Assembly: GCA_044426265.1 (NCBI GenBank)
Contig: JAWXUR010000003.1
Coordinates: 714-64,713, forward strand
Direction: 5' to 3'
DNA from: Clostridia bacterium
GTDB lineage: Bacteria > Bacillota > Clostridia > Oscillospirales > Acutalibacteraceae
Length of the DNA stretch: 64,000 nucleotides
In this document: piece after piece, positions 3,877 to 62,283 of the stretch
How the letters are laid out: the number at the start of each line of letters is the position of its first letter
How positions within the stretch are numbered: position 1 is the stretch's first letter
The notes under the pieces: model-generated
The model's database searches: none
Told to the model about the DNA's origin: nothing
The model's input: the letters and a program-made list of their open reading frames with translations, nothing else
Translations under genes and position numbers: made by a program

Positions 3877-4178
3877 TGTGGACTTACGCATCATAGTTTG
3901 AAACTTAAAAATTTTTCAATTAGTTTTATATTAATGGGAAATTGAGGATTATAGGAAAAAATCCAAGATTTTTTTTAGATTTTAACCTTTTTTTTGCAAA
4001 GCAAAAATTACAATCGGAGTTCTAGCTCCCTTTTGAGGGAGATGTCAGCGAAGCTGACTGAGGGTTTGACCCTTAATTTTCCATTCTCAATTCTCAATTT
4101 TCCATTATTATTTTTTATTATTTTCTTAAGTTCCCAGCTATGGACTTACGCATTTGCCGAAGGCAAATTGTACCGCCC
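3877..4178. repeat. Mosaic hairpin-array repeat locus R1
   Basis: Chain of short perfect hairpins: TTTTTGC-AAA-GCAAAAA, GTCAGC-GAA-GCTGAC, AGGGT-TTG-ACCCT, TTTGCC-GAA-GGCAAA+TTGTACCGCC. Contains a 7-bp periodic tract at 4075..4109. The direct repeat TGGACTTACGCAT occurs at 3879..3891 and 4141..4153. Modules recur near 17670, 31004 and 51385. Confidence 0.8.
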
Positions 4179-4185
4179 ATCATGG

Positions 4186-6015
4186 CTATTGTGCGCAGTG
4201 TTTAACTAGTTCTGTTAAAAACGCTTCGCCATATTTTTGATATTTCGCTTCGCCGACACCTTGAATTTTCATTAAATCTTCTTTGGTTTGTGGCTTTTCT
4301 TCGCACATTAATCTCAGCGTTGCATCTGAAAAAATGATGAATGCTGGCAAACTGCTTTTTTTCGCTTGTTGTTGCCTTACAACCTTGAGTTTCAAGAAAA
4401 GGCGCATATCAAATGGTGCTTGCTCTTGAGTTTGTTTGTTAGAATCTGTTGGAAATGGAAGAAGATTTTTAAGGCTTTCTTTTTTCTGGAATTTTCTAAC
4501 TTTCTTTTGTCCAGTTAAAATCGGAGCAGCTTTTTCAGTTAAGCTAAGCTTATTTTTCGTATCAACCGCTATGTAGTTAAACCGAATTAAATGGTCTATA
4601 ACTTTTTTGATTTCTGATGGTGCAACGTCATTCATGATGGCAAAAGTTGTGAGTTTATCAAACTTCTTTTCCACAACAAAATCAGTTGTTTCACCTTTTA
4701 GTACGTCAATTAACACTTCAATAGGTTGCTTGCTTCTCATGCGCTTAATGCACGAGAAAATCTTTTGAGCCTCGATTGTGATGTCTATTGAGCTGCCAAC
4801 GCCATTGCAAGCGGAGCAGTTTCCACAGCGTACGTTTGAAGTTTCACCAAAATATGCAAGCATATATGCTCTAAGACAGCCTGCCTTAGTTGCATAGTTC
4901 ACCATCTTTTCAAGCTTTAAGAGTTTTAATCTTTTTAGTCCCTCTTTTTCAAGCTCAGAAAGTTGTTCGTTTTCTTCTGGGTTATTGATGAAATATTTTT
5001 GTGTGCGTATATCGCCAGCATTGAAAAACAAGATGCAATTTGCTGGTGAGCCATCTCGCCCAGCTCTTCCAGCTTCTTGATAATAGCTTTCAATGTCGCC
5101 AGTGATGTTATAATGAATAACAAATGAAACGTTTGATTTATCTATGCCCATGCCAAAAGCATTTGTTGCAATGATGATTTCGTTTTCATCGTTAATGAAT
5201 TTTTCTTGATTGAGTTGTCTTTCTTTTTTGCCTAAGCCAGCATGGTATTTTGTCACGCTATATGAATCATCACGAAGTCTTTCATAAAGCTCGTCAACCG
5301 CTCTTCTTGAAGAGCAATAAACGATGCCACAACTGCCTGAATAAAGGTCGAGATATCTTTTAAGGGCAATATATTTAATCTTAGGTTTTGCAACTTCAAA
5401 ATACAGATTTTTTCTGTCAAAGCCTGTCACAACAACCTTTGCTTTTTGAAGTTTCAAGAGTTTTTCAATGTCGTTTCTAACTCGCATTGTTGCCGTTGCT
5501 GTGAAAGCAGACACAATTGGTCGAGTTTTTAAGTTATCAATGAAATCGCTGATTTTAAGATAACTTGGTCTAAAATCTTGACCCCATTGAGATACGCAGT
5601 GAGCTTCGTCCACACACACCATTGAGATGTTGAGGTGCTCCACCAATTTCAAAAATGGTTTAGACTCCAATCTTTCAGGTGATACGTATAAAATTTTATA
5701 CTCACCATTGATTGATTTTTCAGCCACTATTGCATTTTGTTTTTCTGTTAAAGAGGCATTGATATATGCCGCTGGAATATCATTTTGTTGCAAAGAAGAA
5801 ACTTGATCTTTCATGAGCGAAATGAGCGGAGAAATAACCAGAGTTATCCCCTCAAACATCAAAGCTGGAATTTGGAAGCAGCATGATTTTCCTGCACCTG
5901 TTGGCATGATGCCTAAGCAGTCTTGCCCACTGACAATGCTATCGATAATTTCTTCTTGACCCTCTCTAAAAGTGTCATAACCGAAATGTTTTTTTAAATA
6001 ATAAAACTTATCCAA
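4186..6015 (-). CDS. recQ: ATP-dependent DNA helicase RecQ
   Basis: 609 aa with Walker A (PTGAGKS), DEAH box (VDEAHCVSQWGQDFRPSY), a Zn-binding Cys cluster (CGNCSAC) and a C-terminal HRDC-like region. Confidence 0.93.
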   Translation of the reverse strand: MDKFYYLKKHFGYDTFREGQEEIIDSIVSGQDCLGIMPTGAGKSCCFQIPALMFEGITLVISPLISLMKDQVSSLQQNDIPAAYINASLTEKQNAIVAEKSINGEYKILYVSPERLESKPFLKLVEHLNISMVCVDEAHCVSQWGQDFRPSYLKISDFIDNLKTRPIVSAFTATATMRVRNDIEKLLKLQKAKVVVTGFDRKNLYFEVAKPKIKYIALKRYLDLYSGSCGIVYCSSRRAVDELYERLRDDSYSVTKYHAGLGKKERQLNQEKFINDENEIIIATNAFGMGIDKSNVSFVIHYNITGDIESYYQEAGRAGRDGSPANCILFFNAGDIRTQKYFINNPEENEQLSELEKEGLKRLKLLKLEKMVNYATKAGCLRAYMLAYFGETSNVRCGNCSACNGVGSSIDITIEAQKIFSCIKRMRSKQPIEVLIDVLKGETTDFVVEKKFDKLTTFAIMNDVAPSEIKKVIDHLIRFNYIAVDTKNKLSLTEKAAPILTGQKKVRKFQKKESLKNLLPFPTDSNKQTQEQAPFDMRLFLKLKVVRQQQAKKSSLPAFIIFSDATLRLMCEEKPQTKEDLMKIQGVGEAKYQKYGEAFLTELVKHCAQ

Positions 6016-8474: not shown

Positions 8475-8512
8475 GGTCGTACCTTTTTGGCAAAGCCAAA
8501 AATTGTACCGCC
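8475..8512. repeat. GTAC-flanked T-run/A-run palindrome (family member 2)
   Basis: GGTCGTACC-TTTTTGGC-AAA-GCCAAAAA-TTGTACCGCC. Confidence 0.85.
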
Positions 8513-8704: not shown

Positions 8705-11678
<2,974 letters not shown>

Positions 11679-20540: not shown

Positions 20541-20628
20541 GGCGGTACAATTTTTGCGGTTAACCGCAAAAAGGTACGATCACCACGACATGAACTCCGT
20601 GATTGATTTGCTCAACGAGCAATCGAAA
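20541..20628. repeat. GTAC-flanked palindrome (member 3) plus two further hairpins
   Basis: GGCGGTACAA-TTTTTGCGG-TTAA-CCGCAAAAA-GGTACGA, then ATCAC...GTGAT and GATTTGCTC-AAC-GAGCAATC. Confidence 0.8.
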
Positions 20629-22023: not shown

Positions 22024-23919
22024 ATGCAAGAAAACATATTAGAAAATGAATTTGAAGATGAATATGAGTTTATTGAAGTTAGCCAAAGCATCAAAGAGAT
22101 AACTGATGAAAAAATCAAGAATAATGAAAAAGTTGTTTTCATTGATAAGATTTTTTTCAAACGCACTGTTTTTTGCGCTCAAGGGCGTTTAATCGGCTAT
22201 GATGATGATGCGAAGTTCATGGTTAAATTCACTAATCAAACTGGCGATATCAGCATTAACTTCAATCACATCGATGTTAAAGATGGTCAATTTAAAATTT
22301 CAATTAACTTAATCAGTGCTTATGAAAATGCACCTGTTGCAACTGGCAATTATTCTCTTGAGTTTCACGAAATCTTAAGTCCAGATTTTTTTGAGCTTGT
22401 ATCAACAAGCAGTGATGATGTGAGTGTAACGCTTTCAACAGAGGGCAATAAATCATTTGCTGTTTGTTATGATCAAGAAAATTACTATATCAAAACTGAG
22501 CTTTTAAGCACATATGAAAAAGCTTATGTTAGCCCTGATTATGAAATTGATTATAATTTTTACAAAGACAATGATGTTCACTGGAAACTTCAAAGATCTG
22601 CAATGAATTATTTTAGAGCATTTTCAAGTTATAATGTTGACAGCTGCTTATTTGAGCTTCGCATTGGTTATAAAGCACCAAACAATATGCCTGTGCCTTA
22701 TTGGGAGAAAAAACGCAATGAAAAGCGCAAGAAAAAAGCGTTAAAGCAAAGAGATGTTTCGCTTTATGGCAATCGCATAATCTTCAACTTTTTCTTAAGA
22801 TTTGCAAGAAGAAAAGGAAATGTCATCTTATTTTCTTCAGGCTCACGAGCAAAAATTGGTGGTAATGAAGAATTTGTTTATAAAAGAATGATTGAAAGAG
22901 GAATGAAAAAGACTCATAAATTCCTTTTTGACTTCAAGCCAACCATCACTGAAAAAATGCCATTTTTCAAAAAGATTAGCTTTTTATATAAACTAGCTGT
23001 GGCTGACATCATCATCATTGATGACTATTATCCTGATATTTACACTTTAGACTTTCCTGAATATAAAAAAGTTGTTCAAGTTTGGCACGCTTGCGGTGCG
23101 TTTAAGGCTGTTGGTTTAGAAAGGCTCGGCAAACCTGGTGCTCCTGCATTTAACACAAGAGTACACAAGTGTTACACCCATGTGCCTGTTAGTTCGTACC
23201 ACTCAGCGCTCCACCACGCCGAATGTTTCGGTTTAGATGAAAAATGTTTTTATCCAACTGGTGTGCCTCGTACAGACATCTTTTTTGACCCTGAATATAA
23301 AAAGAACATCATGGCTCAACTTGCTCAAGAGTTTCCTATGTCTGTTGGAAAGTCAAAGGTTTATTTGTACGCACCAACATTTAGAGGAAATGGTGCAAAC
23401 TCTGCTCACTTCCCTTATGAAAAAATTGACCTTGAAGCTTGGGGAGAATTTTGCATTGAAACTAACTCACTTTTCGTGATTAAAATGCATCCATTCGTGA
23501 AACAATTAATCAGAATTCCTGAAAAATATCAAGATTACATCATCGATGCAACTTCATATCGTGAAGTTAACGACATCTTGTTTATGATTGACGTACTCAT
23601 CACTGACTACTCTTCAATCATTTATGAATTTTCACTCTTGAAACGTCCAATGCTATTTTACGCATTTGATAAAGATGAATATGTTGCCACTAGAGATTTT
23701 TACGAAGAATTCGAAAAAATTGTACCAGGAAAAATCGTTGGCACTTCACAAGAACTTCTTGAGAGCGTTAAAAACGAAGATTTCGAGTTTGAAAAGATGG
23801 ATTATTTCATCAAGAAAAACTTCACTCACACTGACGGCAAGTCAACAGATCGCTTCATCGACCATATTATTTTAGATGAAGATTATGATTTAGATATTGA
23901 TTATAGCACTATATTTTAA
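22024..23919 (+). CDS. CDP-alditol:poly(alditol-phosphate) phosphotransferase (TagF/TarL family) with an uncharacterised N-terminal domain of about 300 aa
   Basis: TagF-family motifs VWHACGAFK, TGVPRTD, YAPTFRG, ITDYSSIIYEF and RDFY. ATG 22024 is preferred over GTG 22018. Confidence 0.85.
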   Translation: MQENILENEFEDEYEFIEVSQSIKEITDEKIKNNEKVVFIDKIFFKRTVFCAQGRLIGYDDDAKFMVKFTNQTGDISINFNHIDVKDGQFKISINLISAYENAPVATGNYSLEFHEILSPDFFELVSTSSDDVSVTLSTEGNKSFAVCYDQENYYIKTELLSTYEKAYVSPDYEIDYNFYKDNDVHWKLQRSAMNYFRAFSSYNVDSCLFELRIGYKAPNNMPVPYWEKKRNEKRKKKALKQRDVSLYGNRIIFNFFLRFARRKGNVILFSSGSRAKIGGNEEFVYKRMIERGMKKTHKFLFDFKPTITEKMPFFKKISFLYKLAVADIIIIDDYYPDIYTLDFPEYKKVVQVWHACGAFKAVGLERLGKPGAPAFNTRVHKCYTHVPVSSYHSALHHAECFGLDEKCFYPTGVPRTDIFFDPEYKKNIMAQLAQEFPMSVGKSKVYLYAPTFRGNGANSAHFPYEKIDLEAWGEFCIETNSLFVIKMHPFVKQLIRIPEKYQDYIIDATSYREVNDILFMIDVLITDYSSIIYEFSLLKRPMLFYAFDKDEYVATRDFYEEFEKIVPGKIVGTSQELLESVKNEDFEFEKMDYFIKKNFTHTDGKSTDRFIDHIILDEDYDLDIDYSTIF

Positions 23920-30517: not shown

Positions 30518-31170
30518 GGTACAGTTTTTCTGTTATGCGTTTTTTATGGTACAGTTTTTGGCGGTAAACCGCAAAAAACGTGGTTTCGAGGGAGTGCGGT
30601 GGTTTTTGTTTCGTGAAATCACGAAACACGAATTTTTTCAGTTTCCATGGCATATGTATCGGTTAGTTTTTTTGTTTCTAGGTAGCTTTGATGTGTTGGG
30701 ACGTTTCGGCGAGCGTTTAATTTTGGCTTTGCCAAAATTATTGCGTGCCTTGCACGCAATTGCTGCGGCTTCGCCGCAGCAAAACGCTCGCCGAAACTGC
30801 ACCGCTAACTGACGATTACAATCCACAAAACAGTCGGCTGTCGCCGTCTGTTTTGCTAGTTTCATAAATCAAGCCGTAAAAATCGCTTTGCTCTTTTACT
30901 ACTAACGCAAATGCGATGTTATTTTCTCTTGGTTTGATTTGTAGGGTAATATAGTGCATTTAGTTTAGTTTTACGTTTATTTGAATCGCATTTGCTTTGC
31001 TTTAATTCTCAATTCTCAATTTTCAATTCTCCATTTTCTTGTGGTTTTCGCTCGTTGCGACGAGCGACTTAAGGCTCTGCCTTAAGAATCTGCAATTTTT
31101 CGTGAAAAATTGAGTAAAGCTTTGCTTGCTTTTTTTCTTTTTTCTTTTCTTTTTTTATTTTTTCTTTTTT
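30518..31170. repeat. Largest hairpin-array repeat locus R8 (~650 bp)
   Basis: GTAC palindrome (GGTACAG-TTTTTGGCGG-TAAA-CCGCAAAAAA), then GTTTCGTGA-AA-TCACGAAAC. A 16-bp outer stem encloses three hairpins at 30703..30797. Next come the AAAACAG..CTGTTTT hairpin, the CGCAAATGCGAT module, a 7-bp periodic tract (31004..31038), a partial hairpin chain (31046..31129) and a T/C tract (31130..31170) abutting the alaS stop. Confidence 0.88.
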
Positions 31171-33810
31171 TTAGCCTATCATTGTTTTGATAATCTCTGC
31201 CGCTTGCTCCAACGCCGCTGGAATCTTCGCAACATCCTTAGCTCCAGCCATAGCACTATCAGGTTTACCACCACCAGAACCACCAGCAAGCTGAGCAACT
31301 CCCTTAGCAATAAGTCCTGCCTTAGCACCTTTAGCAATAGCCTCTTTACCACAACAAACACCAATATTACCGCTACATTTTTCCTTTTGAACGCCGCCGA
31401 TAACACCAATATAATTTTCACCCTTATCACGAATCATGCTCATCATTTGGCGAATCTCATCAACTGTTGTATCTTCAAGCATAGTAGTAACAAGCATCAA
31501 ACCATCAATCTCAACAGCAGAATTTAACAGTGAACTAATTTTAATATTAGCAAGTTCAGTAGACTTTTTCTCGAGTTCTTTCTCTTTAAGTTTAAGAGTG
31601 TCAACAACAGCCTTAGTTTTCACAACAACGTCATTAACATTAGAAATCTTAAGCGCATCTGCAACTGAATTAATAACTCCCAATTTTTGGTTAACAAAGT
31701 TCAAGAAGTTTTTGCCTGTCACAGCCTCAATTCTTCTAACACCAGCTGCTACTGAACTCTCTGAAACGATTTTAAACAAACCAATTTCTCCAGCATTTGC
31801 AACGTGAGTACCGCCACAAAGTTCAACAGAAAAATCGCCAATTTTAACAACTCTTACAACGTCACCATATTTTTCGCCAAACAATGCCATTGCGCCCATT
31901 TCACGAGCTTTGTCGATAGGCATTTCCTCACTTTGTACGCTCAAAGCACCCAAGATGATTTCATTTACTCGAGTTTCAACCATTGCAATTTCCTCTGCTG
32001 TCATTGCAGAAAAATGCACGAAGTCAAAACGAGTGGTTTTTTCATCAACCAACTGACCAGCTTGCTCAACATGAGAGCCGAGAACTTCTCTAAGCGCTGC
32101 TTGCAAAAGGTGAGCTGCTGTGTGGTTTTTCTTAATATTTTGGTGTTTTTCGTCGTCCACTTTTGCGCTCACTTCATCGCCAACGCTCAAAATGTCACCG
32201 CTCACAAGCGAACCTGAATGCAAATAAATGCCGTCAGCTGTTTTTGTTGTACTATCAACCTTAAACACTGCTTTGTCAGTTTCGATTACACCGCTATCGC
32301 CCACTTGACCGCCACTAAGTGCATAAAATGGGGTTTTATCTAAGATGATAGTTGCTTTTTGCTCAGCTGTCACAAAGTCTTTTCTTTCATCGTCAGCCAC
32401 AACGGCTAAGATTTTTGCGTGAGCTGAAAGCTCACTGTACCCCAAGAAATCAGTTGAGTCAAGACCTTTTGTTGCTGTGCCTTTGTTTTTCCAAGCGTCA
32501 GCGCCAGCATCTTTTCGAGCGTTTCGAGTGCGCTCTCTGTTTTCTTTCACGATGCGTGCAAACTCTTCTTCGTCAACGCTCAAGCCTTTTTCTGCGAGGA
32601 TTTCTTTAGTTAAATCGATTGGGAAACCGAAAGTATCTTGAAGTTTGAATGCGTCTGCACCTGAAAGAATTTTGCCATCGAGATTTTCGATAACTTCACT
32701 CAAAAGGCGAAGCCCGTTATCAACTGTTTTTGCGAAACTTTCTTCTTCACTTTTGATGATTTTGATGATTAAATCTTTTTTCTCTAAGAGGTTAGGATAT
32801 GCGTTCTTGTTTTCCTCGATAACTGTTTCACACACTTTATAAAGGAAAGTTTCATTCACACCTAAGAGCTTACCATGACGAGCGGCACGACGAAGAAGGC
32901 GGCGAAGAACATAGCCACGACCCTCATTTGATGGAATAACACCATCGCTGATCATGAATGTCGTGCTGCGAATATGGTCGGTGATAACACGAAGTGAGAT
33001 GTCGTTTTTCTCATCGTCATGATAGTTAACTTTTGCGATATCGATAACGTGTTTCATGATTTTTTGAACTGTGTCAACTTCAAAAAGATTGTCGACACCT
33101 TGCATGATGCAAGCAAGTCTTTCAAGTCCCATACCTGTATCAATATTACAGTTTTTGAGGTGGTCATATTTACCTTTGCCATCACTTTCAAATTGAGTGA
33201 AAACTAAGTTCCAAAACTCTGTGTATCTGTCGCAGTCACAGCCTGGAGCACAGTCTGGTGAGCCGCAGCCGTACTTTTCGCCACGATCGAAGTGAAGTTC
33301 TGAACATGGTCCACAAGGGCCAGCACCGTGTTCCCAGAAGTTATCTTCTTTACCAAGACGTTTCATGCGATTTTCAGCCACACCGATGTGTTTTGTCCAC
33401 ATATCATAAGCTTCATCATCTTCAAGGTACACAGTAACCCAAATTTTATCGATTGGCATTTGCATAGTTTTTGTACAAAACTCCCATGCCCACTCGATAG
33501 CTTCTTTTTTGAAATAATCGCCAAAAGAGAAATTGCCGAGCATTTCGAAATATGTGCCGTGACGAGCGGTGATGCCCACACGTTCAATGTCAGGTGTACG
33601 GATACATTTTTGACAAGTTGTCATGCGATTTTTTGGCGGAGTAAGCTCTCCGGTGAAATATTTTTTTAAAGGCGCCATACCAGCGTTGATGAGTAGTAAG
33701 CTTTTATCTCCTTGTGGTACGAGTGAGAAGCTTTCTGCTTTGAGGTGGTCTTTGCTTTGAAAGAAGTTGAGGTATTGTTCACGGATTTCGTTTAGTGATG
33801 TCCATTGCAT
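31171..33810 (-). CDS. alaS: Alanine--tRNA ligase
   Basis: 879 aa. Class II core (RHGTYFEMLGNFSFGDYFK), editing-domain HxxxH (HTAAHLL) and a C-terminal DHHA1-like region. Confidence 0.96.
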   Translation of the reverse strand: MQWTSLNEIREQYLNFFQSKDHLKAESFSLVPQGDKSLLLINAGMAPLKKYFTGELTPPKNRMTTCQKCIRTPDIERVGITARHGTYFEMLGNFSFGDYFKKEAIEWAWEFCTKTMQMPIDKIWVTVYLEDDEAYDMWTKHIGVAENRMKRLGKEDNFWEHGAGPCGPCSELHFDRGEKYGCGSPDCAPGCDCDRYTEFWNLVFTQFESDGKGKYDHLKNCNIDTGMGLERLACIMQGVDNLFEVDTVQKIMKHVIDIAKVNYHDDEKNDISLRVITDHIRSTTFMISDGVIPSNEGRGYVLRRLLRRAARHGKLLGVNETFLYKVCETVIEENKNAYPNLLEKKDLIIKIIKSEEESFAKTVDNGLRLLSEVIENLDGKILSGADAFKLQDTFGFPIDLTKEILAEKGLSVDEEEFARIVKENRERTRNARKDAGADAWKNKGTATKGLDSTDFLGYSELSAHAKILAVVADDERKDFVTAEQKATIILDKTPFYALSGGQVGDSGVIETDKAVFKVDSTTKTADGIYLHSGSLVSGDILSVGDEVSAKVDDEKHQNIKKNHTAAHLLQAALREVLGSHVEQAGQLVDEKTTRFDFVHFSAMTAEEIAMVETRVNEIILGALSVQSEEMPIDKAREMGAMALFGEKYGDVVRVVKIGDFSVELCGGTHVANAGEIGLFKIVSESSVAAGVRRIEAVTGKNFLNFVNQKLGVINSVADALKISNVNDVVVKTKAVVDTLKLKEKELEKKSTELANIKISSLLNSAVEIDGLMLVTTMLEDTTVDEIRQMMSMIRDKGENYIGVIGGVQKEKCSGNIGVCCGKEAIAKGAKAGLIAKGVAQLAGGSGGGKPDSAMAGAKDVAKIPAALEQAAEIIKTMIG

Positions 33811-33887: not shown

Positions 33888-34086
33888 AATTTTACTCAAT
33901 TTTTTTAAAAAATTGCGGTTTCTTAAGGCAGAGCCTTAAGGCGCTCGCCGCAGCGAGCGAAATCTCCTATCGTCAAAAAAATCAGGAGGATAGACAAAAA
34001 TTTGTCCATTGGACAATTTTTTGTCGTAAGGAACCCTATTAAGGGGTTCCTTGATTTTGCCAAAGGCAAAACAATACAGATTTGCC
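33888..34086. repeat. Hairpin-chain element, full copy H1, inside the alaS 5' leader
   Basis: At least six consecutive stem-loops: CAATTTTT/AAAAATTG, CTTAAGGC-AGA-GCCTTAAG, CGCTCGC-CGCA-GCGAGCG, TTTGTCCA/TGGACAA, GGAACCC-TATTAA-GGGGTTCC and TTTTGCC-AAA-GGCAAAA. Collinear with 38392..38597 (inverted) and 40926..41290. Confidence 0.88.
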
Positions 34087-36196: not shown

Positions 36197-36239
36197 GGTC
36201 GTACTTTTTTTGCGGCTTGCCGCAAAAAACTGTACCGCC
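36197..36239. repeat. GTAC-flanked palindrome (member 5)
   Basis: GGTCGTAC-TTTTTTTGCGGC-TT-GCCGCAAAAAA-CTGTACCGCC, preceded by GTAGCT. Confidence 0.85.
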
Positions 36240-36420: not shown

Positions 36421-37866
36421 ATGAATAAAACTCAATCAAACAAACTTGCAACTGAAAAAATTAGTAAGCTGCTTTTTTCAATGGCTGTGCCTGCAATCAC
36501 GGCGCAAATCATCAACCTGCTTTATAATATTGTTGATAGAATCTATATCGGTCACATCGCTGACATTGGCACTACTGCCCTCACTGGAGTTGGTGTTGTT
36601 ATGCCTATCATTACAATTCTCACCGCTTTTAGCAGCCTTGTTGGCATGGGCGGTGCACCTCAAGCAGCAATTGCAATGGGGCAAGGTAACAACGAAAAAG
36701 CCGAAAAAATTCTTGGCACTTGCGTTAGCACCATCGTCGGAGTTTCGGCGATTTTAACCGCTGTTTTGCTGTTTTTTGGTGAAGAAATTCTTTGGCTTAT
36801 CGGTGCTAGTGAAGACACCATCGGTTATTCAATGCAGTATTTAGGCATCTATTGTGTCGGCACAATCTTCATTCAATTTGTGCTTGCGATTAATCCATTC
36901 ATCACAACTCAAGGCTTTGCATCAATTTCCATGCGTACTACCCTACTTGGTGCTGTGACTAACATCATCTTAGACCCTATTTTTATTTTCGTGTTTGGTT
37001 TAGGAGTTCGTGGTGCGGCAATTGCAACAATTCTTTCGCAGCTTCTTTCAGCAATTTGGGTGCTTAAATTCTTAACAGGCAAAAAGACAATGTTAAAAAT
37101 CAAAAAAACTCATCTTAAAATCGATTTTAAACTTTTACTCGTAATTTTTGCCCTCGGTGTTTCGCCATTTATCATGCAATCAACTGAGAGCATACTCACA
37201 ATTTCGTTTAACACTTCGCTTGGCAAATATGGCGGAGATTTAGCCGTGGGCGCAATGACGATCTTATTTAGCTGTATGCAGCTTGTCACTCTTCCTCTTA
37301 TGGGGCTCACTCAAGGCGCACAGCCAATTGTTAGCTTTAACTATGGCGCTGGAAATATTGACAGGGTGAAAAAAGCGTTTAAAATACTGCTTATATCTTG
37401 CTTTGTGTTCTCATTCACTGTGTGGTCAATCATGATGATCTTCCCACAAGTTTTTGTTGGTCTTTTCTCAAGTGATGATAGCTTAATCACATTAGGTTGT
37501 TGGGCGATTAGAATTTATATGTTTGCAACTGGATTTTTTGGTTTACAAATGGCTTGCCAACAAACTTTCATTGCACTCGGTCAAGCGAAAAGCTCAATCT
37601 TCATCGCTCTTCTTAGAAAAGTTATCATGTTAATTCCACTCATTTATATCTTGCCAAACATCATGACAGATTCAATCGCTAACTTGTTTAACGCAGATGC
37701 AATGTCTAGCTTCGTAAGCGATCCAACTAAGGTTTTTGCTGTGTTTGTGTCCGAACCTATTGCTGACACTATTTCAATTATTGTGACTTTAATTGTGTTT
37801 AGCATCACTTTTAAAAGAATCGTTAAAGAGCTTGAGCAAAGCAAAAAATTAAGCACTGCAAATTAA
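36421..37866 (+). CDS. MATE-family multidrug/efflux transporter
   Basis: 481 aa, about 12 TM. The N-terminus (KLLFSMAVPAITAQIINLLYNIVDRIYIG) is typical of MATE. Confidence 0.88.
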   Translation: MNKTQSNKLATEKISKLLFSMAVPAITAQIINLLYNIVDRIYIGHIADIGTTALTGVGVVMPIITILTAFSSLVGMGGAPQAAIAMGQGNNEKAEKILGTCVSTIVGVSAILTAVLLFFGEEILWLIGASEDTIGYSMQYLGIYCVGTIFIQFVLAINPFITTQGFASISMRTTLLGAVTNIILDPIFIFVFGLGVRGAAIATILSQLLSAIWVLKFLTGKKTMLKIKKTHLKIDFKLLLVIFALGVSPFIMQSTESILTISFNTSLGKYGGDLAVGAMTILFSCMQLVTLPLMGLTQGAQPIVSFNYGAGNIDRVKKAFKILLISCFVFSFTVWSIMMIFPQVFVGLFSSDDSLITLGCWAIRIYMFATGFFGLQMACQQTFIALGQAKSSIFIALLRKVIMLIPLIYILPNIMTDSIANLFNADAMSSFVSDPTKVFAVFVSEPIADTISIIVTLIVFSITFKRIVKELEQSKKLSTAN

Positions 37867-38391: not shown

Positions 38392-38597
38392 GTAGCGGTG
38401 AGATTGCTTTGTTTTGCCTTCGGCAAAATCAAGAAACCCCCGCCGAGGGTTTCTTACGCAAAAATGTCCACCGGACACTTTTGCTATCTTCCTGCGGTTT
38501 TTTGGCGATAAGGTATTTCGTTCGCTGCGGCGAACGCCCAAAGGCTCTGCCTTTGGAAACCGCAATTTTTCGAGAAAAATTGAGTAAAGCTTTGCTC
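38392..38597. repeat. Hairpin-chain element, full copy H2 (inverted relative to H1)
   Basis: Begins GTAGCGGTGAG. Same module order as H1 but with changed, still-complementary stems: CCAAAGGC-TCT-GCCTTTGG, AGAAACCC...GGGTTTCT and GTTCGC-TGCG-GCGAAC. Ends 24 nt from the stop of the lipid-kinase gene. Confidence 0.88.
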
Positions 38598-40925: not shown

Positions 40926-41290
40926 AAGCAAGCAAAACTTTACTCAATTTTTCACAAAAAATTGCGGATTCTAAAGGCAGAGCCTTTAGGCGCTCGCCGC
41001 AGCGAGCGAAACTCCCAATCGTCAAAAAAATCAGGAGGATAGGCAAAGTGTCCAGTGGACATTTTTTTGCGCAGTAGCTTGTAAATTTTAAAACTTTACA
41101 TAATTATCGAGAGATTTTTGTCTAAATCAAGGCGGAGGATTGAGCAATACTTTCGTATTGCGATTGACGACAACGCAGAGTTAGACTAAAATATACGATA
41201 AGTATGTGGAGTTTTAGGGTTTATAAGCTACTTTGGAACCCTATTAAGGGGTTCCTTGATTTTGCCGCTGGCAAAACAAAACAATCTTAC
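40926..41290. repeat. Hairpin-chain element, full copy H3, carrying a nested 158-bp hairpin insertion
   Basis: Collinear with H1 except for 41074..41231 (GTAGCTT...AAGCTAC), inserted between the TGTCCA/TGGACA and GGAACCC/GGGTTCC modules. Confidence 0.88.
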
Positions 41291-49934: not shown

Positions 49935-49977
49935 GGCGTACTTTTTTTGGCGGTTAACCGCCAAAAAACTGTACCCC
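49935..49977. repeat. GTAC-flanked palindrome (member 6) between convergent genes
   Basis: GGCGTAC-TTTTTTTGGCGG-TTAA-CCGCCAAAAAA-CTGTACCCC. Confidence 0.85.
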
Positions 49978-50048
49978 ACACCACACAAATAAAAAAGCAA
50001 CGAAGCGATTTAATTCACTTCGTTGCTTTTATTTTTTTGTTTAAATTA

Positions 50049-54391: not shown

Positions 54392-54419
54392 AAAAAGAGC
54401 CCCTCTTTCGAGAAGCTCT
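54392..54419 (-). terminator. Intrinsic terminator of cassette copy 2
   Basis: On the minus strand: AGAGCUUCUC-GAAA-GAGGGGCUCU (10 bp including two G:U pairs) followed by U5. Confidence 0.75.
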
Positions 54420-54445
54420 TTAATTATTGGATTTTTTTACACTAA

Positions 54446-56898: not shown

Positions 56899-56939
56899 GG
56901 GGTCTCATCTTTTTTTCGCTTGCGAAAAAACTGTACGGC
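56899..56939. repeat. GTAC-flanked palindrome (member 7, degenerate left flank)
   Basis: GGGGTCTCATC-TTTTTTTCGC-TT-GCGAAAAAA-CTGTACGGC. Confidence 0.75.
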
Positions 56940-56940
56940 A

Positions 56941-56970
56941 AAAAAAGAACTCCCCCTTTTCGAGAAGTTC
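56941..56970 (-). terminator. Intrinsic terminator after the methyltransferase gene
   Basis: On the minus strand: GAACUUCUC-GAAAA-GGGGGAGUUC followed by U6. Confidence 0.7.
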
Positions 56971-56978
56971 TTCGTGTT

Positions 56979-58133
56979 TTATTTAGCTTGATTTTCAATT
57001 AAAGTGCATAGGCATTGCTTGAAATTATATTTCTTTTCAAGAAAATTTACCGCTTTCAAATCAGGTGTTTTTTTCTTTTTAAGAGTGGCTCTAATCATCA
57101 AATTTTTAGGTGAATTTTCAAAATCCACAAACTCTAGCATATCCACATTATAGCCGCATTGCTCGAGGATTTCACCACGAATTGAGTCGGTGAGCATGGC
57201 GCTAAAACGCTCTTTGATAAGCCCATGGTGCAGCAGCAAATCAAAATCTCCGCCAGTTTTGATGCTTGAATTGATTTCATGTTGGCAACAAGGAATTGAG
57301 AAAATATGCTTCACCGAGTGCTTGATTGCGTGGTGTAAGGCATAATCTGTGGCGGTGTCGCAGGCGTGAAGAGTGATAATCATGTCAACATCTTTGCTGT
57401 AAAGCTCGTCATTTTTAACGTCATTAACGTAAAAATTGAGGTTCTCGTAGCCGTATTTCTTGGCAACATCGTTGCAGTACGCCACAACATCTTCCTTGAG
57501 GTCAAAACCGATAACTTTGGTCTTAACTTTTTTGATGTATGTGAAATAATAGTAGACAATAAAAGTCAGATAGCTCTTGCCACAGCCAAAATCAAGAATC
57601 GTGATTGAATCCTTATTCATCTTTTTAAAGTTATCATCAATAATTTCGATAAAGCGGTTAATCTGCTTAAATTTATCATATTTGCTGTTGATAATCTTAT
57701 AATCTTTGCTAAAAATTCCGAGGTCAACAAAAGCCTCAATTTTTTCACCTTGAGCGAGGATATAATTTTTCTCTTTATTATGAGAAAGGTTAACTTTTTG
57801 GCTGCTCGTGTTTTGTTGTACTCTTCGCTTCGCTACGCCGTTTGCATTAATAATGTAATGAATATTAACAGTTTCGCTCGCCAAATTCGCTTGCTTGAAG
57901 TTTACGACTGCGACTTCCCTAGTCCAATTAGTAAACTCGTCAAGACTCATGTTTTTGTGAAACACTTGATTGTTTTTATGCTGCTCAATTTGCCATTTAA
58001 CTTCGTTCTTACTCAAAAAAGGTTTAGCAATAACTTTTGAAAATTCCGCCTCTTTTTGCCTTTTATCGCTAAAAACAAGCTTGCTTATGCTCCGATTTAA
58101 TTCGTTTATATCATTTATCAAATTTACGCTCAT
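56979..58133 (-). CDS. Class I SAM-dependent methyltransferase, substrate unknown
   Basis: 384 aa. SAM motif I ILDFGCGKSYLT and an acidic loop GFDLKED. Confidence 0.75.
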   Translation of the reverse strand: MSVNLINDINELNRSISKLVFSDKRQKEAEFSKVIAKPFLSKNEVKWQIEQHKNNQVFHKNMSLDEFTNWTREVAVVNFKQANLASETVNIHYIINANGVAKRRVQQNTSSQKVNLSHNKEKNYILAQGEKIEAFVDLGIFSKDYKIINSKYDKFKQINRFIEIIDDNFKKMNKDSITILDFGCGKSYLTFIVYYYFTYIKKVKTKVIGFDLKEDVVAYCNDVAKKYGYENLNFYVNDVKNDELYSKDVDMIITLHACDTATDYALHHAIKHSVKHIFSIPCCQHEINSSIKTGGDFDLLLHHGLIKERFSAMLTDSIRGEILEQCGYNVDMLEFVDFENSPKNLMIRATLKKKKTPDLKAVNFLEKKYNFKQCLCTLIENQAK

Positions 58134-58541: not shown

Positions 58542-58586
58542 TTTTAGTACTTTTTTTGCGGTTAACCGCAAAAAACTGTACTAAAA
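58542..58586. repeat. GTAC-flanked palindrome (member 8, nearly perfect 45-bp palindrome)
   Basis: TTTTAGTAC-TTTTTTTGCGG-TTAA-CCGCAAAAAA-CTGTACTAAAA. Confidence 0.88.
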
Positions 58587-59028: not shown

Positions 59029-60387
59029 ATGCATAATCAAAGCGAAATCATGAGCACCATTGACATGATTGACAATCAGCACTTAGATGTTAGAACAATC
59101 ACAATGGGAATCTCACTTCTCGATTGCGCAAGCGACAGCGTTGAAGTGACGGCTCAAAAAATATACGATAAAATTTGTGACAAGGCTAAAAACTTAGTTG
59201 CAGTTGGCGAGGCTATCGAAACAGAGTTCGGTATTCCAATCGTGAACAAGAGAATTTCTGTTACACCTATCGCCTTAGTTGCCGCAGCGTGCAAAGAAAC
59301 AGATTACACTCCAATCGCTCACGCACTCGACAGAGCAGCCGTGACTTGCGGAGTTAACTTCATTGGTGGCTTCACTGCGCTTGTACATAAAGGTTTCACC
59401 AAGGCAGATTTAAACTTAATTCATTCAATTCCAACTGCGCTCGCTCAAACTCAAAGAGTTTGCTCAAGCGTTTCAGTTGCTTCAACAAAAGCAGGCATCA
59501 ACATGGACGCAGTTGCGCTCATGGGTGAAATCGTTAAAGAAACGGCTGCTCAAACTGCTGATGCAGGCGGATTTGGCTGCGCTAAACTTGTTATTTTTGC
59601 AAACCCAGTTGAAGATAATCCGTTCATGGCTGGAGCTTTCCACGGTGTCAGCGAGGGTGAATGCGTTATCAACGTTGGTGTTAGTGGCCCTGGTGTTGTG
59701 CACCATGCGCTCAAAAAATGCAAGGGCGAACCTTTTGACGTGGTTGCAGAAACTATTAAAAAGACAGCGTTTAAAATCACACGCATGGGTCAACTCGTGG
59801 CTCGTGAAGCTTCAAAAAGACTTGACGTACCTTTTGGCATTGTTGACTTATCACTTGCGCCAACACCTGCTCAAGGTGACAGCGTAGCTCGAATTTTGGA
59901 AGAAATGGGTCTTGAAGTGTGCGGCACGCACGGTACAACAGCGGCGCTTGCAATGCTCAATGATGCTGTTAAAAAAGGCGGCGTGATGGCAACAAACCAC
60001 GTTGGCGGACTCTCAGGTGCTTTCATTCCAGTTAGTGAAGACGAGGGCATGATTGCCGCAACTCTTTGTGGCGCTCTCACACTCGACAAACTCGAAGCTA
60101 TGACTTGCGTTTGCTCAGTTGGGCTCGACATGATTGCCGTTCCAGGTGACACAAGTGCCTCAACAATTTCTGCAATTATCGCAGACGAAAGCGCAATTGG
60201 CATGGTTAACACCAAAACAACAGCTGTTAGAATTATTCCAGCAGTTGGCAAAAAAGTTGGCGAAATCATCGAATTTGGTGGTCTTCTCGGCTCAGCTCCA
60301 GTTATGCCAGTTCATGAGTTTTCTTCTTTTGATTTCATTGCTCGTGGCGGTCGTATTCCTGCACCTATGCATAGTTTGAAAAACTAA
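59029..60387 (+). CDS. UPF0210/DUF711 (PFL-like) protein
   Basis: 452 aa. [15 protein letters not shown] and the length match the family that is usually paired with the UPF0237 ACT protein. Confidence 0.85.
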
Positions 60388-62242: not shown

Positions 62243-62283
62243 GGTGCGTACCTTTTTCGGCAAAGCCGAAAAATTGTACAGCC
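62243..62283. repeat. GTAC-flanked palindrome (member 9) between convergent genes
   Basis: GGTGCGTACC-TTTTTCGGC-AAA-GCCGAAAAA-TTGTACAGCC. Confidence 0.85.

Follow-up and report, generated by a model that had tools for sequence, protein, structure and literature searches.

A GTAC-headed hairpin repeat multiplied in a single Clostridia species, most likely as selfish REP-like DNA

The GTAC hairpins described here form a real, strongly non-random repeat family, present in about 190 copies in a single species and almost only between genes. They are most likely selfish REP-like mobile DNA. Their preferred site is head-first just past a stop codon, or past the T-tract of the gene's own terminator, and comparison with sister species indicates that the element appeared inside operon junctions that are tight in those relatives. 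These elements are probably best classed as a lineage-specific, non-coding, hairpin-forming and non-autonomous repeat of the REP/REPIN kind. On present evidence the family is new but its type familiar; it joins the other repeats of an unusually repeat-rich genome and reveals no new kind of biology.

The window, that is, the whole stretch of 64,000 nucleotides analysed here, had been the subject of a preliminary description that listed nine GTAC-flanked palindromes; all nine sites are present in the window sequence and read as stated. The pattern GTAC-N0-3-T5-N6-18-A5 yields 23 strand matches, which fall at nine loci of the window; in 100 dinucleotide-preserving shuffles, which supply the chance expectation, the figure is 0.44 +/- 0.9. 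The existence of the family is thereby confirmed. The copy at 4150 (T3/A3) is too weak for this pattern, and one of the nine pattern loci is a look-alike in coding sequence: T5-ACGAAGAATTCG-A6-TTGTACC, at 23697-23725, lies within a conserved (Pfam-matched) domain of a TagF-like glycerophosphotransferase gene and probably resembles the element by chance, with no insertion involved. The copies of the window, and the one terminator needed to read them, are as follows.

4150..4178, minus strand: weak copy, T3-GCC-GAA-GGC-A3-TT-GTACCGCC; head about 10 nt from the 3' end of a RecQ-like gene (4186-6015)
8475..8512, minus strand: two-headed copy between divergent genes; head toward the 5' end of an RluA-family gene (8705-9697)
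20541..20579, plus strand: two-headed copy 13 nt past the stop codon of a tarI-like gene, in a 179-nt spacer
30546..30590, plus strand: single-headed copy with the imperfect core GGCGG/CCGC; tail toward a repeat cluster; a duplicated head fragment, GGTACAGTTTTT, just upstream at 30518-30529
36197..36239, minus strand: two-headed copy, core GCGGC/GCCGC; head toward the 5' end of a MATE transporter gene (36421-37866)
49935..49977, minus strand: two-headed copy, GGGGTAC-AG-T6-GGCGG-TTAA-CCGCC-A7-GTACGCC read head-first; head toward the serC 3' end; DNA fold -17.6 kcal/mol, z -5.5
49993..50030, minus strand: ordinary intrinsic terminator of serC, a 16-bp stem then a T-tract, between the serC stop codon and the head of the 49935..49977 copy
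56899..56939, minus strand: single-headed copy, core CGC/GCG; head immediately past the terminator T-tract of a methyltransferase gene (56979-58133)
58542..58586, minus strand: two-headed copy, core GCGG-TTAA-CCGC; head toward the 5' side of a DUF711 operon (gene 59029-60387)
62243..62283, minus strand: two-headed copy, core CGGC/GCCG; head 15-19 nt past the pyrI stop codon; an ordinary terminator hairpin on the tail side

The enrichment extends well beyond the window. Across the host genome (a 162-contig draft of 2.2 Mb, 37% G+C), 191 loci combine at least one GTAC head with both runs, T and A, and a GC core that pairs perfectly; 90 matches are found to a strict two-GTAC pattern. The AlaRS encoded in this genome most closely resembles those of gut MAGs of Acutalibacteraceae/Oscillospirales. 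Open reading frames of at least 90 aa are largely avoided: 172 of the 191 copies fall outside them, in a genome that is only 19% intergenic by the same crude ORF call. At gathering score, Rfam 15 offers no family match for the element, its sole hit in the window being a tRNA.

Outside this species the family disappears. A generic core pattern finds 173 loci here and 0-3 in each of 60 other species of the genus, a flank-specific pattern finds 62 strand matches here and 0-1 in 30 relatives, and the five nearest sister species (serC 83-85% identical) give 0-4 hits, all unrelated. By the generic or the flank-specific pattern, the family was not found in 116 congeners, nearest sister species included. 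One genome each of about 185,000 species yielded 29 isolated single hits, which are read as chance matches; only one of the 29 is two-sided, and its genome has no further copy. JGI metagenome contigs contributed one palindromic hit only, again read as chance. As far as these collections reach, then, the burst is confined to this species.

The unit is oriented, with a head and a tail, and every copy with a single GTAC retains the same side. Read head-first, the 5' half of the consensus comprises a T-rich leader, (GGCG)GTAC, a spacer of AA, AG or A, a run of T5-7 and a GC stem of 3-5 bp; the 3' half comprises a loop of 3-4 nt (a figure that holds when at least three bases are left unpaired), the complementary arm, a run of A5-7, a degenerate (G)GTACG and sometimes C-rich bases. 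The head GTAC is invariable and stands 0-2 nt (none, A, AA or AG) from the foot of the stem. T-run and GC core (T5-7 plus 3-5) together make a fully paired stem of 8-12 bp in a unit about 45-55 nt long; flank profiles lose conservation about 12 nt past the tail and about 12-20 nt past the head. The symmetric GTAC-flanked palindrome first proposed must be given up in favor of this asymmetric unit, because only 83 of the 191 loci have both GTACs, the second being missing in the other 108, and because the orientation rule set out below is strong.

The reversed polarity that drew attention to these sequences is real. The T-run lies 5' and the A-run 3' of the GC core on both strands, and the runs lengthen the stem: T-run and A-run lengths are correlated (r = 0.79), and window copies folded as single-stranded DNA reach -10 to -18 kcal/mol (z -2 to -5.6). 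Modules of T-run, GGC or GCC hairpin and A-run that lack a GTAC head are also found in at least three other repeat families of the genome, with examples in the window at 33341-33357, 34055-34071, 38412-38428 and 41260-41276. Reversed polarity is thus a building block common in this genome.

The cores were said to differ and always to pair. They do differ, with 25 stem types; pairing is the rule without being exact, since 222 of 267 strand hits from a search that did not require pairing have perfectly paired cores. MAFFT leaves the variable-length 3' arms out of register, and core pairing was accordingly counted directly. Imperfect cores are mostly 2-bp cores or carry one mismatch. Eight copies, at loci unrelated to one another, have the same T.C mismatch, GTCGG...CCGCC, which suggests a common master from which they were copied. 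Against the REP-like reading, the 191 loci show 118 combinations of head spacer and core, each of the spacers AA, AG and A being freely combined with every core class; descent from a few masters would be expected to leave cleaner subfamilies.

Dyad symmetry, an invariant GTAC and an adjoining A/T tract, in sequences of intergenic location, also bring to mind a duplex-DNA site, at which a species-specific dimeric protein (a regulator or a nucleoid protein) would read two GTAC half-sites. We consider this very unlikely. More than half of the copies have a single GTAC, and where run and core lengths vary the distance from GTAC to GTAC varies with them, by more than one helical turn. Moreover, a centre that is free to vary as long as it pairs points to a hairpin, not to duplex readout.

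Copies are not limited to gene 3' ends and number about 190 genome-wide, so that the outcomes named in the preliminary description as grounds for its refutation are not borne out; as it had stated, copies are found at convergent gene ends and also upstream of genes. The head is directed toward a gene 3' end in 110 cases and toward a 5' end in 59, the median distance to the stop codon being 55 nt. Where a gene 3' end is no more than 100 nt away, 95 copies turn their head side to the gene and 37 their tail side (p = 5e-7); at gene 5' ends no such bias exists (30 vs 29). Twenty-nine copies begin within 25 nt after a stop codon, and most of these have no intervening terminator. At 67 loci the head is immediately preceded by a terminator-like hairpin, and at 39 there is one on the tail side; at 23 of the 67 the end of its stem is 6-9 nt from GTAC, so that the T-tract of the terminator doubles as the leader of the element. 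Among the 95 head-facing copies near 3' ends, 51 lie past a terminator, with the hairpin between stop codon and head, 12 have a terminator beyond the tail only, and in the remaining 32 none was detected. Co-directional gene junctions of 100-130 nt also hold elements. In the window, near-identical terminator hairpins stand at two genes, 54395-54430 (GAGCTTCTCGAAAGAGGGGCTC) and 56940-56975 (GAACTTCTCGAAAAGGGGGAGTTC); only the second has a GTAC element, right after its T-tract.

One way to understand this orientation is to locate the selection in the transcript. The elements would then be stem-loops of the 3' UTR through which the upstream mRNA is stabilised or processed, as an exonuclease block or an RNase III site, and the covariation of their cores would have been selected for the fold. 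The 95:37 bias at gene 3' ends could indeed reflect a transcript function, and to that extent counts against the REP-like reading; the 29 copies close behind a stop codon, mostly without an intervening terminator, and the long perfect stems in 25 paired types lend the RNA reading further support. It is nevertheless unlikely: 51 of the 95 copies lie past a canonical terminator, the roughly 60 copies near gene 5' ends show no preference of orientation, a mismatched subfamily has spread, and absence from the 116 searched congeners speaks against a conserved role. Confinement to one species, copies beyond terminators and the shared mismatch are better fitted by palindromic DNA copying than by RNA selection, and the covariation does not hold up as a sign of selected RNA structure.

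Nor are the elements canonical intrinsic terminators. Read along either strand, the element gives T-run, hairpin and A-run in that order, so that neither transcript has a hairpin followed by a U-tail, and a terminator consensus scan at 49935-49977 chooses the neighbouring hairpin (49993-50030), not the element; the preliminary description had argued as much from polarity. Bidirectional intrinsic terminators likewise have a GC-rich hairpin between an A-run and a T-run and likewise follow gene ends; the GTAC element differs from them in its inverted run order, which leaves no hairpin-then-U-tract on either strand.

The two sides of the element differ in their surroundings. Thirteen-mers that occur at least five times in the genome account for 20-26% on the tail side and 2-4% on the head side, and contig ends within 300 nt are found 25 times at the tail and three times at the head. 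Adjacent elements bracket genes, heads inward, in 15 of 21 pairs; in fully assembled spacers, two heads-outward elements can enclose 50-730 nt of other repeats. The bracketed genes were considered as mobile cargo, an idea rejected because their N-terminal sequences, read by eye, look like those of ordinary housekeeping genes.

With unique DNA on the head side, repeat-rich DNA on the tail side and heads turned inward around genes, the elements might be supposed to act as unconventional transcription stops or insulators between genes and the repeat-filled parts of spacers. This is the least likely of the alternatives weighed here. In neither direction is the hairpin succeeded by a U-tail, many copies have an ordinary terminator next to them, and some copies separate genes that sister species keep side by side and presumably transcribe together. 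Promoter-like signals are not evident either: with TTGTAC taken as a -35 box and the A-run as an UP element, -10-like hexamers occur at the right spacing of 16-18 nt in 22 of 191 copies, and at shifted control spacings in 19-28, so that this candidate role was rejected. All three alternatives, RNA stem-loop, duplex site and stop or insulator, are made less likely than the REP-like reading by the single-species range, the copies beyond terminators, the loss of one of the two GTACs in most copies and the variable spacing.

Junctions that resemble insertions are part of the case for the REP-like reading. The tarI-tarJ junction measures 179 nt here and 4-16 nt in four sister species, and within its 179-nt spacer the element is the only part repeated elsewhere in the genome. 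The hprK-ROK junction, which also holds an element, measures at least 116 nt here and 11-40 nt in five sister species; a third junction that was compared varies in length among the sister species themselves. As the extra DNA is longer than the element, the sister junctions are not clean empty sites, and sister-species comparison at tarI-tarJ and hprK-ROK reveals neither a clean empty site nor a transposition event. Logan contigs from nine runs (two for serC, eight for tarI, one run in both) all end inside the element, so that its presence at serC and tarI is shown and no empty site is visible. A look-up with a GAPDH-like protein, made for strain polymorphism, returned no match.

Profiles of the flanks reveal no direct repeat outside the unit, and no target-site duplication is evident. 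Insertion into a pre-existing GTAC, with a 4-bp duplication, was rejected on two grounds: the joined flanks occur once in the genome, and GTAC is missing in 108 of 191 copies. This bears on the comparison with MITEs such as the Correia elements of Neisseria and RUP of pneumococcus, which are also small and non-coding, with inverted ends, also arise by a burst in one lineage, and also insert beside genes and inside operons. MITEs are recognized by terminal inverted repeats with a target-site duplication, for which GTAC is the only candidate here; the GTAC element has neither such a duplication nor matching DDE transposase ends, is far shorter (about 50 nt), and consists as a whole unit of one hairpin, with its empty site found once in the genome. 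Without a target-site duplication, and with joined flanks found once, a classical MITE is unlikely.

The likeness to REP sequences is closer. In a published working definition, a REP has GTAG or GTGG 0-2 nt 5' of a fully paired stem of 7-20 nt, a loop of 2-5 nt and a total length of 21-65 nt (PMC6006769); REP sequences and REPIN doublets are served by RAYT (TnpA-REP) Y1 transposases (PMC6006769, PMC3116915). The GTAC element agrees in stem (8-12 bp), loop (3-4 nt) and total length, in copy number (191 loci) and in extragenic location (172 copies outside ORFs of at least 90 aa). It is likewise a short extragenic imperfect palindrome with a tetranucleotide 0-2 nt 5' of the hairpin foot, lineage-specific in sequence, with copies in the hundreds that cluster with other repeats, in a genome that has RAYT-like genes; two-headed copies resemble a minimal inverted REPIN doublet. 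It departs from REP sequences in its head, which is always GTAC and never GTAG or GTGG, and in a lower stem made of T-run and A-run. BIMEs, the mosaic REP clusters of Enterobacteria, offer a further parallel: GTAC elements also edge multi-family repeat mosaics in a fixed relative orientation, but their module sequences differ from those of BIMEs, no IHF-type or gyrase-type motifs were identified, and most GTAC copies are solitary.

The genome carries four RAYT-like Y1 genes, on contigs C1, C33, C68 and C95, and one IS200, where its nearest sister species have 0-1 Y1 genes, and it carries hundreds of GTAG-headed REPs of several types. In REPIN-RAYT systems the cognate RAYT is flanked, within about 1 kb, by its own REPs; here no GTAC element lies within 1.5 kb of any Y1 gene detected in the 162-contig draft, in which some genes may be missed, and the flanks of the Y1 genes carry GTAG REPs and separate GTTTCGTG hairpins instead. 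A second difference lies in inheritance: a REPIN-RAYT system is as a rule passed on vertically for a long time, whereas the GTAC family was found in no sister species searched. The four RAYT-like genes, the REP-matching anatomy and the insertion-like junctions were counted for the REP-like reading; the GTAC head, the Y1 flanks devoid of the element, and the want of a clean empty site and of a target-site duplication were counted against it.

Several observations were made on the Y1 genes and the repeats around them. About 88 loci carry the separate hairpin, (GTGG)TTTTT-GTTTCGTG-loop-CACGAAAC, which is also represented in the window at 30600-30640; in the copies inspected a GTAG REP usually comes next, oriented the opposite way, and such hairpins flank RAYT-like genes at G000:C1:12790-13620 and G000:C33:60-300. 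One RAYT-like Y1 gene is apparently split by an insert of about 450 nt with inverted ends GCAAGCAACTTAAGG / CCTTAAGTTGCTTGC (L084:990-1480 = G000:C68:6520-7010); the same ends also enclose a repeat, about 250 nt long, with 12-mers that are found about 165 times genome-wide. Two possible sources of the GTAC element were set aside: the ends of the one true IS200 copy are unrelated hairpins, and the similarity of tails to REP arms (GGTACGACCCC vs GGCACGACCCC) holds for a minority of tails only, a weak hint.

How such an element might multiply can be sketched on the model of REP sequences. Copies would be made from single-stranded DNA hairpins by an HUH/Y1 enzyme of RAYT-like kind acting in trans, with T-runs as the favoured landing site. 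The pairing of variable cores may be kept up by copying from palindromic masters together with template-switch correction inside the palindrome, and not by selection on RNA. The T-first, A-last polarity would allow the element to be tolerated, as a transcript of either strand reads U-run, hairpin, A-run; with no hairpin and U-tail in either transcript, the element would not terminate transcription of flanking genes. A bolder version of this proposal is conceivable, if doubtful: the elements would be a distinct REP class, in which the guide of the Y1/RAYT enzyme has come to specify the self-complementary GTAC in place of GT[AG]G and insertion is directed to T-tracts past stops and terminators. 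The inverted polarity would then be an adaptation that renders the element inert both ways, and the element itself a gene-proximal 'landing pad' for other repeats.

If the REP-like reading is correct, a lineage of gut Clostridia harbors a REP-like family with a different head tetranucleotide, a very recent burst in a single species and a design that avoids termination. Such a family would be a convenient system for studying what guides Y1/RAYT enzymes to particular hairpins and landing sites, and what makes small palindromes tolerable beside and inside operons. There is also a warning for annotation, in that these elements occupy the positions where terminators are expected and yet are not terminators.

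A possible depletion of the GTAC tetranucleotide, as of a restriction-type target, had also been raised. The reverse is true: GTAC is the most over-represented palindromic 4-mer of the genome, at 1.86x genome-wide, 1.95x in coding and 1.54x in intergenic DNA, and within genes it is enriched in all three frames. Its enrichment, coding DNA included, rules out an avoided restriction target. A role as uptake signal was discarded as well, since no 8-12-mer reaches the copy numbers of uptake sequences. Other palindromic words behave differently across the whole genome: CGCG is nearly missing, with 16 occurrences against about 3,145 expected from trinucleotide frequencies, and GGCC (0.18x), CCGG (0.31x) and GATC (0.34x) are strongly depleted too, which suggests restriction pressure.
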